Assembly (NCBI RefSeq): GCF_053078305.1
Contig: NZ_CP166879.1
DNA: 64,000 bases
Strand: one strand, 5' to 3'
Position numbers: made by a program. This document shows, one piece after another, positions 9,001-24,000 of the stretch. Each line of letters opens with the position of its first letter. Within the stretch, counting starts at the first letter, position 1.

Positions 9001-12000
9001 CCAGCCATGATTCCGCCAGTCACAATTACCTGATTTAGCAAGCTGGTGCGGGTTCTTAACCTGAGGAAAACAATACAGGGAATAAGTGAAAAAATAATCA
9101 GAAGAATTGATAATACTATAACACTCAACACCTGCCAGAACTCGTTTATTCCTTCCGGGAATTCCAACGTATGAAGAAATAACTCAAGAGGAATAATATA
9201 TATGCAGGCTGCGTGGGTGAATAGCGTTGACTGTACAATATGCATGGAAAGAAACTTTTTGATCTGCTTCCACTTACCCTCTGTGCTTATCTGTCTATAA
9301 GTAATAGAGCCATTGAGACACAGAGAAAGTATAAAACTGCAAATCCAGATAATGCTTAACTGAAGTAGCACATATTGTTCAATTTCTTTTCCTGCGTTGT
9401 ACATGAGGAAAAAATAACCAAAAAATATCAGTGTTGATAATAGCGAGGTCAGAAGAACGATTTTGATGTTGTTTTCCGTCAGTTCATTCCGGAAATCACT
9501 TTCCCCTGGATAATTGGAAATATAGAATCCTGCCACTAGTGAGGGCATAAATAACGCCATGCAAAATAGGAGTACGCTGATACAAGCAAAGACCATCAGA
9601 TAACTGAACAATGATGAAAAAGAAATACTGTCAAAAAAAAGTCCTGTTTGTCCAATACGCGCAAGATGTGACCATATAAACAATGCTACAATAGAAGTTG
9701 ACGCGATCGGTGTAAGGATTGTTAAAAACCAAGCACATAGTTTTATAAAATGTTTGTTTACTCTGTAATTTTCTATATTTTAGTGTCCATTCAAAGTTTG
9801 ACATATGATCTAGCTAATGACTCCATTTTTGGGCATTGCTTACCAACATACCTCTTATGTGTATTACTGTGAAGGAGAACGATGAATAGCGACTATTCAC
9901 GTGGATCTCCACAACAACCATCAATATTCCAGCCATTATCATTCCCGGTATCCTTACCGGCATTACCTGTAGAATCGGTTATTGTTGTTGCCCTATAACA
10001 CACTTTTGTGGCTATAACGTTTATAGCTATCGACAAAAAACCATATTAATTCTTTTGGAAAAAAGAAAATAAGGTATCCATATAACAACACCAAATATTC
10101 CACTCACTAATAATCTGATATTATCTGAATCCAGCTGTACGTCAAAAAGAATAGCCGGTAATAAAGTAAGATAGAGAGCAATAATCAGTCCTGTTGCATA
10201 ATAAGCGATCATGGCTTTTCGAGTTCCTTTTTTGCGTCTGAAAAACAACCACGTTGCATAAAGGGAAACAATGAATCCACATATCAGCAACACAAATGCC
10301 CCCATAGCGTAATAAGATAAAAAGCCAGTTTCATTGAAATAATTGAATGCAGTTATGGTAAAACTGTAAAGTTCAATAGTACTACCAATAACACCCAAGA
10401 TAAGTCCCAGAGCAGGAAGATATAATAGTCCATTAATTTTACTTAACTCTTCTCTTTCACAGGCATCACACAATCCCGACTCTTTGTTTGCTTCTGACAT
10501 TTTACATTTTATACATTCCATTTTTTATTCCATTATTCATTGCGTTACGATAATGTTTAGTTTTTTAAACATCCCCCACCACATGTATGGGGATTGTTGC
10601 AAATCTCACTTAGGATCTGATGGTGTTTTCTTACGGGAGTTAAATTTATCTATTAAATTAAATACTATTGTAGCTAATGTTATTGCTGTTCCTGCTATAC
10701 AACCAAAAACGATAGCTCTTTTAAACTGATTCACTGGAAAATAAAACCCATCACCTTTAAAAAATAAAAGATTGAAACCGCCCCTCCCAGAAATAGTAAC
10801 ATGACTATAGATGATAAACAGCTATAAAGGAACAATATCACATAACTATATAGTTGTTTCATTTTTTCTTATCCTCTGACGAACCTTTCGGTTTATTGAG
10901 TTATTGGCTCCTTCAGGTAACTCACCTTTGGCAAGTTTATCCAGTCCTGCCTGCTTCTGTTCCGAGGTGAGATTATTGGCATCAGCATACTGATTCCATG
11001 AGGAAACCGCCTGACCATAACTCACCATTCCTGATGGAAGACTGAGCGAGTTATTCTCAACAACAATCCTAACCGCAAAGGTTGGGATTGTTGTTAATCT
11101 CACTCAGGATCTGATGGAGGTTTTTTACGAGAATTAAACTTATCGATCAGATTAAAAACTATCGCTGCTAGTGTTATCGATGTACCTGCTATGCACCCAA
11201 ACACAATAACTCTTATCATTTGGTGGGTCGGGAAAAAAAAGAATCCTTTTGTTAGGTAAATAAATAAAGCTCCTCCCCCCATCAAAAGAAATCCACTGAT
11301 GATACAAAAGAGGCATGCATATATGAACAATACAATGTAAGCAATCATTTCCCCTCCTCCTTCTTCGCGCTAGAAGAGAACTGATTATTACTACTTGCTT
11401 CTTTTATATATCCACCAAGAAATTCACTACCAAAAGATCCTGTCGCATCAAATATAAATCCCGGAAACTCTTTCCCAGTAACTGAGTTTACTATTCCGGG
11501 AGCATATACTCCAAATGCTCCACCCAATCCGGCCCCGGCAGCAGCCCCTCCAATAGAGCCTGTATTTGGACCATCGGTAAAGAATGCACCACCCATCGCA
11601 ATTCCGACGTTTTGTCCGACAGTTCTCCCCGGCGCAAGCATACCCGCAATGCCTGAACTGGCACTGCTTTTCCAGTCCCAGTTTTTGTTTTCATTACCTG
11701 GCTGGCTTAAATCAAACCACTGGTAACTTCCATTGGCTATCTCCGCGACGACTCCACCACTGACCATTTTACCGACCGAAGCAGCAGGCCCCAGATACCA
11801 TGCCCCGGCAATCATTACACCATCCTGATATCCATCCACGATCACTTTCGTGATATTGGTGCTGTCCGGCATATCACCTTTCGCTATCTTATCCAGTCCA
11901 GCCTGTGTTTGTTCCGGTGTCAGATTATTGTCCACCGCGTACTTGTTCCATGATGTAGCCGCAGCAGCATTGCTTTCAAAACCATCACCGAAGCTGAGCG

Positions 12001-21000: not shown

Positions 21001-24000
21001 ATTCACTGCCGGCTCCCCCCACCTCGCCGTAATCCATTCCCAGATATAACGCCTGCTCCGGCAGTGGCGTACGCCAGGCCAGGTCGTTGCGGATATACCA
21101 GCCGTTACTGGCATTCAGCGTTCGCTCCCCGTCAAAACCACGAACCGTCCAGCGGTTACCGATGGCAAACTGTTCCTGTGGGGTCAGCGGGGTATTGCTC
21201 AGCTGGCGCTGATACCGGAAGGAATAACTGAAGGGCTGCTCTGCCAGTGTAAAGGGCAGATTAAAGGATGCATTCATCTGCAGGATCTTACTGAGCGCCG
21301 TTGCCTCACCGAAGATTTCCTCCGGTGCCGGCTGTGCACCAAACCAGCGGGTTCCCCGTTGCCAGCTGACACCAGCATCCAGTGTGGCCTGAGAAATATA
21401 ATGACGGTGCTGCAGCCCAAGTCGCCAGGCCGCTGTCTGCCGGCGCTGCACCTGGATTTCCGTATCATTAATGTAGTTACGCGACCTGCGGGCCTGAACA
21501 TCGTAAGTCAGCACCGTTTTCTGCGTCCCGTTACGATGCAGTACCCGGCTCAGCTGCATGCCCAGATTCTGACTCTCGCCACTGTACTGGTAATCCTCAA
21601 CCGCACCAGCTACCGTCTGATGGTAATCGTAATCACTGGCGGTGACGGAAAACTGCCAGTAACCGAAAGGCACAGAGTAATGGGCCGTGTAGTTTTTACT
21701 GCCCTTACCCCCGTAATGTGGAAAATTATGGGTGGCAGAAACATACAGCAGGTCACTCAGGGAAAAAGGATTATCCAGAGAAAATGTTATACCACCGAGA
21801 TAACGCCCTGTGCTGCGGGTACCTGAATCATCAAGCGAAAACCCCAGTCGCCAGTATTTATCCTGTTTACGGGTAATAAGAATATCACTTTCCCCTGGCT
21901 GCTCACCGGGCACAATTTCCATATCAGCCTGCACACCCGGCAGTCGTTGCATATTCTCCAGCCCCTGCTCAATGTCCCGTAAATCCAGCAGAGAACCTTC
22001 GTGTGCCGGGAATGAGGAATACAACTGAATATAGTCATCACTGTCCGGTGTCAGACGCACATGTCGCACAACACCGGGAATAACAACCAGCCGGAGGATA
22101 CCGCTTTTTAAATCCTGCGAAGGTGCCAGAACACGGGTGGTGACATAACCATGATCGACAAGACGGTTCTGCAATGTACTCATCAGCAGATTAATTCCTT
22201 TCGCCCCCAGGCAATGCCCGACCGCCCCGTTGGCGATTTTTTGTAAAGGCAGCCAGTGTGGTAACGCATCAGCCCCCTTCAGTTCCGTCTGTTTAATCTG
22301 AAAACAGGGCGTTTCAACAGGAAAATTAATCTTATGGGCAAAAGAGCCAGGTGCAGAAAGGCGAACATCAGGGGCTGAAGGCGTCAGTTGTTGCTCAAGG
22401 GCTTCCTGACGCTGCTGCTGAATGATAAATGTATCCTCTCCACTACGCCGGATATCCGCGGCCTGAAGAGATAAAGGCGATAATAAAACAGACATCAGTG
22501 TCAGTGATAAAATGAACGGACAGCGCCGGAATAAGCTTTGTTCCTCAGCCCTCTCGTTCCTGCAACATAATTTTCCAGCCAAACGAAAAACCTTTTATGC
22601 ATGCTGTGTCAACAATCACCAGCCTCCTGACGATGTCTGCCGCCATTTTGGCAATAACACACTACCGCCCTTCCGGAATTCCCCGTATCAACCGGTACCA
22701 GAATGCTGAGTAACCAGTCAGCCAAATCAGGCTGGTTTAATTTTGCTCATTATAGAATAATGATCTGAAAAATATCAATATAACAGGTGTATCGATCGTA
22801 ATTGCAGATGCTTGCAGATCTTTATTCCAGTATATGTTGTCAAGCTGGAATATTTAGAAATATATATCCATGACTAATGTGGAAATACAGAAAATTATTC
22901 CAGTGAATGCTTTTTATACGGTCTCCTGGCACAGAAAATGGTGATTTTTGATTTGAATCATTGAAATCAGTTCTGCTAATAAGAAGACATGCTGAAAAGC
23001 CGATTTTCAGGGGGTGATTGAAGGGATTGTGAGTTTTTCCTTCGGCTTTTAACGTAACTTCCTGTTTTCCTGATATTCCACGGCAAGATTAATTTTTAGC
23101 GGAGCAGAATGAATAAAATCTTCATCTGGTGTTTTTGCTGCGCGTAAATGCAGGTGTAACTGTGGATGTTATCCACTGAAGAGCTGCTGATGAGGATGAA
23201 GACATGCTGACTAAAAAAATGTTACTCGTTTGTGCTTCGTGTGTTGCGCTGAGTGCCTGTTCTGCACAGGAAATTGCAGAGCTGAACAGGCAGATAAGTG
23301 ACGGTGCATTTGCTGTGACAAAAGTACTGAACGTAGGTGTAAACCAGGCAGATGATGATCTCAAATATCTGTCTCAGGCACCCCGGGCAAAAAGAGAGAA
23401 ACGTGATCATGTCATAGAAGTCCCTGTTGATGTGGATACAGCTGCGGGAAGACTGAAACGGTACTATAAGTTTTATTCAAATGAAGAAGTCGATGCGATT
23501 CGTAATAACGGACATGCGAACGGGAAGTGGGCCGCAGCAGCAATAAGTCAGAACGGACATATGTGGGATGCCATGCCCGGTAGTTATTATAAAATGGGCA
23601 GTGACTGGGATGGTGGCGAATTTGATGATCATCTGACGCTTGAACTTGAAAAAAATGGCAAAGGAAGTCGGATATATATAACGTATGCATCTCCGGCACC
23701 GGGGCATCTGAAAGATAAATTTATTGAGCCATTAGTTAAACGTGTGAAGGATGTGGCTGAAGGCCGGGTCAGGTAACGTGTACTATATAATATATCCCCT
23801 GGCATACTGCCAGGGGATGTTGTTTTTCTGTATGTCATTTTATGATGATACCTTTGATATTCTTATAGATGTTTAGGTGAACTGTTAATGATAAATATTG
23901 TCCGATATTATACTTTCTTGTAAGTATATTTTGGGGAGGTTATTTTTATTAAGGTTTTAAATGTTTTATTTTGTTCGCTTTTTCTTTCTCTGTTTGTTGT

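Follow-up and report, generated by a model that had tools for sequence, protein, structure and literature searches.

The closest described relative of the locus reported here is cdiBCAI-STEC4 of E. coli STEC_O31, a class IV contact-dependent growth inhibition (CDI) operon (Halvorsen et al. 2021, mBio, PMC8510554; CdiA WP_001081258.1). Delivery, the LPS receptor and acylation of CdiA at Lys1467 have all been shown experimentally for that system, and it has been noted that O antigen or capsule might mask target cells or curb activity in vivo. A second reference is the SG17-G18 group 3 toxin/immunity pair (Halvorsen et al. 2024, PLoS Genet, PMC11630599; HBC0854646.1 / HBC0854645.1), which belongs to a family of CDI ionophores whose immunity proteins are typically 72-100 aa long. 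A further reference is the class I prototype cdiBAI-EC93. In a separate literature on LEE-negative STEC, the tpsA/tpsB genes of LAA module III / PAI ICL3 are described as an uncharacterised adhesin-type TPS, with cdiAB listed apart (Montero et al. 2017, PMC5539235).

Here we analyse a window of 64,000 nucleotides from contig NZ_CP166879.1 (assembly GCF_053078305.1), whose minus strand carries a tight four-gene operon, cdiB-cdiC-cdiA-cdiI, with no frameshift and no internal stop in any of the four genes. We conclude with high confidence that this is an intact E. coli class IV CDI operon, carried as cargo by an ICE-like genomic island. Both the operon type and the exact CdiA protein are already in the literature; the system is a known one, not new.

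11100-22582, minus strand: whole locus, cdiI through cdiB
~10606-22780, minus strand: extended locus, adding an orphan relic and a promoter-like site
20843-22582, minus strand: cdiB, Omp85/TpsB outer-membrane transporter, 579 aa from TTG 22582
20306-20833, minus strand: cdiC, toxin-activating lysine acyltransferase (TAAT/HlyC family), 175 aa
11345-20290, minus strand: cdiA, class IV CDI effector, 2981 aa, exact protein KFD79096.1
12002-12013, minus strand: VENN motif (aa 2760-2763), boundary between conserved CdiA body and polymorphic toxin
11100-11348, minus strand: cdiI, cognate immunity protein, 82 aa

The initial annotation had called the locus complete, and the four intact reading frames bear this out. 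Its start at 11345 does not stand: that position is the end of cdiA and leaves 245 bases of the 249-base cdiI outside; the toxin type and the orphan module were also absent from it. A frameshift in cdiA, named there as a refutation, does not occur in the given sequence. The 8.9-kb cdiA frame, together with its domain matches, rules out a chance origin. Of 5426 complete E. coli genomes, 178 contain 80% or more of the locus; NCBI pipeline annotation breaks up the equivalent genes in related genomes, yet the reading frames there are uninterrupted.

Gene order is identical to that of STEC4. Seven published STEC4 primers match the window exactly and the mutagenic primers show no mismatch beyond their designed bases, whereas the STEC4 cdiI primer has no match in the window; cloning primers ZR258 and ZR259 also lack a match, so the flanking DNA differs from that of STEC4. 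EC93 shares the CdiB/CdiA/CdiI logic and the domain order TPS, FHA-1, receptor-binding domain (RBD), FHA-2, PT-VENN, CT, and the toxin types of both systems are AcrB-dependent ionophores paired with a small membrane immunity protein. EC93 nevertheless lacks cdiC, has a different FHA-1 and RBD (with BamA rather than LPS as receptor), and carries a group 1 toxin only ~20% identical to the one in the window.

Predicted export and expression, and integrity of the operon

The assignment of CdiB as a TpsB transporter holds up well: Pfam matches cover POTRA_2 (1.9e-22), POTRA_3 (2.8e-17) and ShlB (2.2e-109), and the closest solved structure in the PDB is CdiB 6WIL (E 9e-79), with CdiB 6WIM at E 2.9e-53. 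Its start is less straightforward, as cdiB has no plausible ATG. The sole in-frame ATG is codon 30; a start there would shorten the signal peptide to 12 residues, and strain 154, the closest relative, has an Ile codon in its place; since TTG 22582 has an AAGG 5' of it, we consider this TTG the likelier start. The predicted signal peptide ends after SLQA and before ADI. The steps of CDI proposed here and below are drawn from published experiments on the reference systems, for a locus known to us from its sequence. There we observe the order of the genes, their domain architecture, the conservation of catalytic and acceptor residues, and sequences nearly identical to those of the characterised references. 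In the first of these steps, CdiB would export CdiA and keep this beta-helical filament attached to the cell surface.

A promoter-like site, predicted from its consensus match, precedes cdiB by ~170 nt; STEC4 loses its inhibition when the predicted promoter region is deleted (PMC8510554).

22749-22778, minus strand: candidate Pcdi, sigma-70-like (TTGATA, 18 nt, TATAAT), 11 of 12 consensus positions
10606-11103, minus strand: orphan cdiA-CT/cdiI module, degraded, group 3, 1473e subtype

An operon with intact genes could still be a silent or non-functional relic kept for immunity, for example through weak translation of cdiB from a non-ATG codon or H-NS silencing of the island. The TTG, as the only cdiB start upstream of the signal peptide, is consistent with this idea, and so is the decay of the adjoining orphan module. 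That module retains a VENN motif and a stub of the entry domain (reading frame 10846-11103), has lost ~450 bp of ionophore domain, and has its cdiI split by a 1-nt frameshift into frames 10731-10862 and 10606-10734; the 24-nt primer CH6248 (1473e-cdiI) matches exactly at 10839-10862, and E. coli 1303 (L002) has an intact homologue. Further, in three complete genomes the shared CT/cdiI block stops at 11995, and cdiB, cdiC and cdiA up to the VENN motif are missing, which shows that delivery genes are lost while immunity is retained. Against this, all four frames in the window are uninterrupted, one of them over 8.9 kb, the reading frame of the cdiB N-terminal region is kept across divergent alleles, the promoter-like site is strong, and the STEC4 locus is active in K-12 from its native promoter (PMC8510554). 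We therefore consider a silent relic unlikely; the operon may be expressed and active in its source strain.

Predicted acylation and receptor binding

The initial annotation placed an HlyC-family acyltransferase between cdiB and cdiA, in agreement with a Pfam HlyC match (7.6e-31) and a match to ApxC 4WHN (E 1.4e-26) in which the catalytic dyad His37/Asp107 is aligned. The exact protein is WP_044189736.1. STEC4 cdiC has the same start, stop and His37/Asp107; sites identical to its primers CH4087 and CH4088 lie at 20816-20833 and 20306-20323, and its D107A mutagenic primer shows a single mismatch, the designed GAC-to-GCC change. That cdiC marks a lipidated subclass of CDI systems, as had also been proposed, was shown for class IV by Halvorsen et al. 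2021 (PMC8510554). CdiC is homologous to the RTX activators HlyC, CyaC and ApxC, with a common His/Asp dyad, but these act on an RTX protoxin, whereas the substrate of CdiC is the receptor-binding domain of a TPS-secreted CdiA; domain searches found neither RTX repeats nor type I secretion genes in the cdi locus.

CdiA is, as first described, a 2981-aa protein that has a TPS domain and ends in a toxin set off by VENN. Its domains run in the order ESPR, TPS, FHA-1, receptor-binding domain, FHA-2, PT-VENN and a 218-aa C-terminal toxin, with FHA-1 repeats at ~aa 340-1173, FHA-2 repeats at ~aa 1761-2440 and PT-VENN at aa 2716-2766 (Pfam 1.2e-18). The TPS domain also scores 76 bits against TIGR01901 and matches the HpmA and FHA TPS domains in the PDB at E 1e-37 to 2e-41.

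19301-20290, minus strand: ESPR (aa 1-37, Pfam 9.3e-10) and TPS (aa 68-330, Pfam 1e-56) of CdiA
15524-16308, minus strand: RBD, Val1328-Pro1589, with STEC4 primers CH4358 and CH4359 exact at both ends
15890-15892, minus strand: Lys1467 codon, equivalent of the CdiC-acylated residue in CdiA-STEC4, context YYYRIRKKGKDK

Against an OCR-derived CdiA-STEC4 sequence, aa 1-1483 are 92-99% identical and aa 2203-2763 are 89-94% identical. At position 1243 the window encodes Ser where STEC4 has Cys; a published C1243S variant of STEC4 is fully active. Alignment of the receptor-binding region, proposed earlier as a means of defining the CdiA class, gives 99.4% identity to STEC4 over aa 1328-1483, the N-terminal half of the RBD, which places the protein in class IV. 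The landmarks V1328, R1465, R1535 and P1589 (STEC4 numbering) are conserved, as is the RKKGK motif at aa 1465-1469 (R1465-K1466-K1467-G1468-K1469), and the STEC4 K1467A and K1469A mutagenic primers mismatch only at the 2 designed changes. By analogy with STEC4 (PMC8510554), we infer that Lys1467 is acylated here: before export, CdiC would use acyl-ACP to place a 3-hydroxydecanoyl group on this residue. The lipidated, basic, Tyr-rich RBD would then bind the phosphorylated heptose inner core of LPS on neighbouring E. coli, a specificity that we assign by homology.

The same gene already has another name: the adhesin marker that STEC work on the LAA island calls "tpsA" is the cdiA described here. 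The published LAA tpsA qPCR primers (PMC10408066) fit cdiA without a mismatch, and the amplicon, 174 bp as published, lies at 15945-16118, inside the RBD. Both islands are tRNA-Phe-associated and found in STEC-type strains. The LAA island has four LAA modules, whereas the island here, which ends near a tRNA-Phe gene, instead carries ICE transfer genes, a sialic-acid cluster and subAB, along with a YadA-like adhesin.

This identity raises the question of whether the locus serves mainly as a host-directed adhesin or cytolysin TPS, as the STEC literature treats it under the virulence marker tpsA/tpsB of LAA/PAI-ICL3, and in which the acyltransferase readies the exoprotein for eukaryotic membranes, as in RTX or ShlA-type toxins. 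The exact tpsA primer matches, the pathogenicity-island-like setting with subAB and the YadA-like adhesin, and the resemblance of the TPS domain to HpmA hemolysin all fit such a role, as does a 68-fold rise of tpsA in adherent bacteria in 1 of 3 strains; the other 2 showed no induction (PMC10408066). However, a polymorphic C-terminus bounded by VENN and followed by a cognate membrane immunity gene is the signature of an interbacterial toxin, domain searches of CdiA found no RTX repeats and no pore-forming hemolysin domains, and the near-identical STEC4 system kills E. coli with the LPS core as receptor and with CdiC needed for target-cell binding (PMC8510554). We judge a mainly host-directed function very unlikely, and favor an interbacterial CDI system in which CdiA may have a secondary adhesive or autoaggregation role.

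The VENN boundary and the toxin

11348-12001, minus strand: CdiA-CT, group 3 ionophore, SG17-G18 subtype, 218 aa

The VENN motif is evidently also a recombination breakpoint. Between the window and strain 154 there are 0-3 mismatches per 500 nt over 8500-12500, with zero over 10000-12000, against 7-37 per 500 nt in the cdiA body; the CT/cdiI block shared by the three genomes mentioned above likewise stops near VENN, at 11995. The resemblance to STEC4 ends here: after VENN, STEC4 CdiA (2939 aa in total, with an IENN motif) carries Ntox25, whereas the CdiA in the window (2981 aa) carries a group 3 glycine-zipper ionophore.

We assign this toxin to the SG17-G18 subtype of the group 3 ionophores and not to the Ntox25 of STEC4. 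KFD79096.1, identical to the CdiA in the window, is listed among the group 3 CDI ionophores in the search sheets of Halvorsen et al. 2024, recovered by PSI-BLAST from two seeds, the EC93 ionophore and a group 3 ionophore. In these sheets it and SG17-G18 have equal lengths (2981) and equal identities (64.43% and 19.63%), with E-values of 2e-56 in the 94-3024 search and 1e-14 versus 2e-14 in the EC93 search. We detect no difference between the two toxin/immunity pairs, the comparison being one of BLAST statistics and a 20-nt primer match rather than of full sequences; the pair in the window has a glycine zipper, an 82-aa immunity protein with two transmembrane helices and an AcrB-type entry domain. 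CdiA-CT begins with an entry domain of ~50 aa, 50% identical (E 3e-13) to that of an Ntox25-bearing CdiA-CT of AcrB type, and continues as a Gly/Ala-rich, hydrophobic helical membrane domain with a G-x3-G-x3-G-x3-G glycine zipper at aa 2907-2927.

CdiA-CT has no Pfam domain and no identifying PDB match, and its all-helical AF2 model has a mean pLDDT of 46, a low confidence that we count against our preferred explanation and that makes the five-helix-bundle fold a putative one. The all-helical prediction and the lack of an enzymatic Pfam domain nevertheless fit an ionophore. The missing matches and the weak model leave a sliver of room for an enzymatic toxin (a nuclease or other cytosolic activity); we give this hardly any chance, given the hydrophobic glycine-zipper sequence, an immunity protein that is a small membrane protein and not a soluble inhibitor, the recovery of the protein from both ionophore seeds, and the finding that one tested representative per ionophore group depolarised targets, with killing by group 3 toxins including CT-SG17 dependent on AcrB and blocked only by cognate immunity (PMC11630599).

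As an ionophore, the toxin would act at the target inner membrane. FHA-2 would take the C-terminal region through the target outer membrane, and the region would be released after VENN; the entry domain would use AcrB so that the helical domain with the glycine zipper inserts into the inner membrane, dissipating the membrane potential. Siblings would be protected by CdiI, a two-helix protein that would bind the ionophore domain within the membrane. The small overlapping immunity gene of the initial annotation is readily recognised: its ATG overlaps the cdiA stop (ATGA), hydropathy places two hydrophobic transmembrane helices at ~aa 3-31 and 45-68 of the 82-aa product, whose length lies in the range typical of the family, and the 20 nt with which cdiI begins (11329-11348) are identical to the gene-specific part of primer CH6251 (SG17-18-cdiI). 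The exact CdiI protein is found on 430 contigs.

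Layout of the cdi operon

The minus strand of the window carries a cdi operon of four co-directional, tightly packed open reading frames (ORFs):

Genes of the cdi operon, in order of transcription
20843-22582, minus strand: cdiB, 579 aa; Pfam POTRA_2, POTRA_3 and ShlB
20306-20833, minus strand: cdiC, 175 aa; Pfam HlyC
11345-20290, minus strand: cdiA, 2981 aa; Pfam ESPR, TPS, FHA-1, FHA-2 and PT-VENN
11100-11348, minus strand: cdiI, an 82-aa ORF

The gaps measure 9 bases (cdiB-cdiC) and 15 bases (cdiC-cdiA), and the cdiI start overlaps the cdiA stop (ATGA). CdiB, encoded beside the exoprotein gene, is of the TpsB/Omp85 type, with POTRA domains and a ShlB-type barrel in Pfam and a PDB match to CdiB 6WIL (E 9e-79). 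CdiA shows the order signal peptide, TPS domain, many FHA-1 repeats, FHA-2 repeats and PT-VENN (Pfam); VENN itself occupies residues 2760-2763 (window 12002-12013) and is followed by 218 residues. Pfam was needed for much of this assignment: a search of NCBIfam gave no match for CdiB, CdiC, CdiI or the ORF of an orphan module downstream of cdiI. The initial annotation had described a complete locus with a TpsB transporter, an HlyC-family acyltransferase, a 2981-aa CdiA with TPS and VENN, and an overlapping immunity gene; ORFs and Pfam matches agree with this description, and the locus is real and was correctly interpreted. The interval assigned to it, 11345-22582, begins at the wrong point, as 11345 is the end of cdiA and cdiI is almost entirely excluded.

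The sole in-frame ATG of cdiB is codon 30. We consider the TTG at 22582, which has AAGG 8 nt upstream, to be the likelier start, because initiation at codon 30 would leave a 12-residue signal peptide, this codon encodes Ile in the closest relative, and the upstream frame is maintained there. A promoter-like site at 22778-22749 matches 11/12 consensus positions.

In the RefSeq annotation of NZ_CP067426.1, cdiB and cdiA are broken into several CDSs and pseudogenes; in the DNA, neither ORF is interrupted. A reading of cdiA and cdiB as pseudogenes in strain 154 was rejected on the same grounds, translation of the DNA giving two continuous frames, and the pseudogene and fragment calls are thus an annotation artefact. 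All of the best 20 genome matches list a separate ‘POTRA domain’ CDS and ‘ShlB’ CDS, suggesting that the split cdiB/cdiA calls are a systematic artefact, of which the non-ATG start of cdiB is the probable cause. NCBI's pipeline is, in effect, breaking up class IV cdiB and cdiA genes that are intact.

A class IV delivery system matching STEC4

Class IV cdi loci are defined by a cdiC gene between cdiB and cdiA together with a diverged FHA-1/receptor-binding domain (RBD) region (Halvorsen et al. 2021, PMC8510554). In the class IV reference STEC4, the cdiBCAI locus of E. coli STEC_O31, the receptor for CdiA is phosphorylated heptose in the LPS inner core, and CdiC uses a His37/Asp107 dyad to attach 3-hydroxydecanoate to Lys1467 of the RBD (PMC8510554). 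The acyltransferase gene that the initial annotation had taken as the mark of a lipidated CdiA fits this definition: it lies between cdiB and cdiA, matches HlyC in Pfam, and encodes both His37 and Asp107, which align with ApxC. The alignment of the receptor-binding region that had been proposed for assigning a CdiA class likewise finds this region homologous to RBD-STEC4, placing the protein in class IV.

Agreement with STEC4 extends to individual residues. V1328, R1465, K1466, K1467, G1468, K1469, R1535 and P1589 share their numbering in the two CdiA proteins; residues 1460-1471 of the window protein read YYYRIRKKGKDK, with Lys1467 in a basic, Tyr-rich context, and the Arg-C peptide K1466-R1535 contains 7 lysines, as published for STEC4. 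With the OCR text of Fig. S3 (PMC8510554) as the STEC4 CdiA reference, identity is 99.4% over residues 1328-1483 of this OCR-derived sequence, and, OCR errors included, 92-99% over residues 1-1483 and 89-94% over residues 2203-2763. Residue 1243 differs, being Ser in the window and Cys in STEC4, and the C1243S variant of STEC4 is fully active (PMC8510554). Beyond VENN the two proteins diverge, to ~35% identity in a forced alignment.

Published primers give the same picture. Seven STEC4 primers (PMC8510554 supplement), covering the cdiC start and stop, the cdiB/cdiC junction (ZR253), N1229, V1328 and P1589, match the window exactly, and the K1467A, K1469A and D107A mutagenic primers mismatch it at the designed bases only. 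The cloning-boundary primers ZR258 and ZR259, the STEC4 cdiI primer and CH4964 have no match in the window, which for the cloning-boundary and cdiI primers is expected because the flank and the immunity gene differ. An acyltransferase of HlyC type also occurs in RTX cytolysin operons (HlyCABD type), but these carry RTX nonapeptide repeats and type I secretion genes, neither of which is present at the cdi locus: CdiA has no Pfam match to RTX/HemolysinCabind, and the neighboring genes are cdiB and cdiI, not hlyBD.

At least 80% of the 13-kb locus is found in 178 of 5426 complete E. coli genomes, with a best match 97.7% identical, and judged by its sequence the locus is E. coli DNA. CdiA and CdiC are exactly matched by KFD79096.1 and WP_044189736.1, respectively. 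Contact-dependent inhibition neutralized by cdiI has been demonstrated both for STEC4 and for the SG17-G18 C-terminal toxin, CT-SG17 (PMC8510554, PMC11630599). The window locus contributes nothing biologically new, being one more example of a system already characterized by experiment: genetic and biochemical work established the system class in 2021, the toxin family followed in 2024, and GenBank and the 2024 catalogue both already contain this exact CdiA. In practice the locus is useful for annotation and for the competitive phenotype to be expected of the strain, namely an LPS-core receptor, an AcrB-dependent ionophore and membership of the SG17-G18 immunity group.

The toxin-immunity pair and its exchange at VENN

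CDI ionophores fall into 6 groups, each with an N-terminal entry domain and a five-helix ionophore domain containing a glycine zipper, and are neutralized by two-helix immunity proteins of 72-100 residues (Halvorsen et al. 2024, PMC11630599). We predict that the window toxin is a group 3 CDI ionophore of the SG17-G18 immunity group. In the S1 Appendix of that study, KFD79096.1 is listed in both the EC93 search and the 94-3024 (group 3) search, and its entries parallel those of SG17-G18, with a common length of 2981, common identities of 64.43% and 19.63%, and E-values that are equal (2e-56) or nearly so (1e-14 vs 2e-14). The gene-specific part of the SG17-G18 cdiI primer is identical to the opening 20 nt of the window cdiI. 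CT-SG17 is neutralized by its cognate CdiI only and requires AcrB in the target cell (PMC11630599).

The C-terminal toxin (CT) itself is Gly/Ala-rich and contains a glycine zipper, G-x3-G-x3-G-x3-G, at residues 2907-2927 (GPNTGSIGGAAAGAGLGGAFG). CdiI, at 82 aa, lies within the 72-100 aa range and has two hydrophobic segments, with hydropathy peaks centered at aa 10-24 and 53-60, in keeping with the two-helix hairpin of group 3 immunity proteins. The CT has no Pfam domain and no meaningful PDB sequence match, and an AF2 model built from a 49-sequence alignment is entirely helical, with 9 helices, at low confidence (mean pLDDT 46, pTM 0.27). An Ntox25 toxin, as in STEC4, was considered and rejected, since resemblance to a toxin bearing Ntox25 is confined to the first ~50 residues, which form the entry domain. 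This post-VENN domain is 50% identical over 52 aa (E 3e-13) to that of an Ntox25-bearing Edwardsiella piscicida CdiA, a likeness consistent with AcrB-type entry.

Homologues of the CT (48 aligned, 53-80% identical) are widespread in Enterobacterales, the majority being orphan modules in the form of short “adhesin” ORFs. One orphan SG17-type toxin lies downstream of the Ntox25-bearing cdiA in E. piscicida CP169063.1 and is followed by an 82-aa cdiI (5684-5932, plus strand, in that locus) that lacks an annotation and closely resembles the cdiI of the window. The presence of toxin and immunity gene together in Edwardsiella indicates that the pair circulates across genera.

Features downstream of cdiI
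10606-11103, minus strand: decayed orphan cdiA-CT/cdiI module, 1473e subtype, directly after cdiI
10027-10521, minus strand: DUF2569 membrane-protein gene; N-terminal CxxC...CxxC and 4 TM helices
8589-9776, minus strand: gene for a 395-aa polytopic membrane protein that travels with CT and cdiI

The orphan module was absent from the initial annotation. Its ORF 10846-11103 encodes VVENN and an entry-domain stub that tracks the family consensus as far as “PEGAN”, beyond which the frame is lost, while a cdiI-like gene is present in two pieces, ORFs 10731-10862 and 10606-10734; the 1473e cdiI primer (PMC11630599) matches exactly at 10839-10862. E. coli 1303 has this module intact; measured against it, ~450 bp corresponding to the ionophore domain are gone, and a 1-nt indel splits the cdiI gene by frameshift. 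The relic is unchanged in 5 complete E. coli genomes, so that its lesions are real and inherited.

Comparison with E. coli O22:H8 strain 154 separates this block from the delivery genes. Positions 8500-12000, which contain the 395-aa membrane protein gene, the DUF2569 gene, the orphan relic, cdiI and the CT, show almost no differences (0-2 mismatches per 500 nt), whereas from ~12000 through cdiA, cdiC and cdiB there are 3-37 mismatches per 500 nt (roughly 1-7%). The recombination breakpoint falls on the VENN codons. In three other genomes, STEC1585 (NZ_CP129252.1), H24 and H25, the same island context is found with cdiB, cdiC and cdiA up to VENN deleted and CT and cdiI kept, so that these genomes have lost delivery but not immunity. 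As is typical of CDI systems, VENN is the junction at which the CT is swapped separately from the CdiA body, because identity with strain 154 breaks at VENN, CT and cdiI are detached in these three genomes, and STEC4 diverges after the same motif.

The DUF2569 gene follows the group 3 cdiI in 4 E. coli loci (the window, NZ_CP067426.1, E. coli 1303 and STEC1585) and is absent beside the same toxin-immunity pair in E. piscicida. We therefore set aside the idea that it is a conserved component of the toxin module; its absence there indicates that it is probably not required. In E. coli 1303, homology to the window ends at the DUF2569 stop, directly after which begins an orphan VENN toxin with the window's entry domain and a different ionophore domain. 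The 395-aa protein, whose gene belongs to the stretch with 100% identity to strain 154, has no family assignment; the ATG that starts its gene in strain 154 is ATA in the window, where the longest ORF begins at a TTG 31 codons in.

The tpsA marker and the surrounding island

The published tpsA qPCR primers for the LAA island, a pathogenicity island of LEE-negative STEC (Montero et al. 2017, PMC5539235), match cdiA exactly, with the published 174-bp product at 15945-16118, inside the RBD. The STEC ‘tpsA/tpsB adhesin’ marker is thus class IV cdiA/cdiB. Papers on STEC pathogenicity islands treat tpsA/tpsB as an uncharacterized adhesin-type TPS system and list cdiAB apart. The match joins the epidemiology of this “adhesin” to the class IV CDI literature, and the virulence association should be read differently. 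We think it highly improbable, in a single judgment on both ideas jointly, that lipidated class IV CdiA, in addition to killing neighboring E. coli, is a host-cell or autoaggregation adhesin in LEE-negative STEC and, separately, that the DUF2569 and 395-aa genes are accessory factors, not hitch-hikers; an accessory role of the two membrane proteins may be, for example, extra immunity or envelope protection.

Island features around the cdi locus
2561-5362, plus strand: ICE conjugation genes (TIGR03757, TIGR03756, TIGR03755), upstream of the locus
24603-24768, 25268-25425 and 26870-27035: two STAXI motifs and one EFASI motif, across the locus from the ICE genes
33797-41610: accessory sialic-acid utilization cluster (nanA, nanK, sialate MFS transporter, 2 esterases, OmpL-like porin, YjhT-type mutarotase, NanR)
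43011-44493, minus strand: subtilase cytotoxin genes, subB (NF011801, 239 bits with the cutoff at 219) and subtilisin-like subA
47733-47935, plus strand: STnc100 sRNA (137 bits)
50662-52182, minus strand: YadA-like trimeric autotransporter adhesin gene
56679-56754, minus strand: tRNA-Phe (GAA) gene

STAXI and EFASI motifs are typical of the leading regions of conjugative elements, and the cdi locus is cargo between these motifs and the ICE transfer genes. Homology to strain 154 places an integrase-domain gene on the STAXI/EFASI side. The subAB genes mark the island as one of LEE-negative STEC type, and the tRNA-Phe gene is likely its attachment site and boundary. Near subAB is an unassigned 267-aa ORF (45021-45824) that is possibly tia/hes-like. 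The island also carries a paralogue of the type-B (zinc-independent) ribosomal protein L36 (7962-8105, plus strand); in strain 154 a type-B L31 gene, also island-borne, lies just upstream of it.
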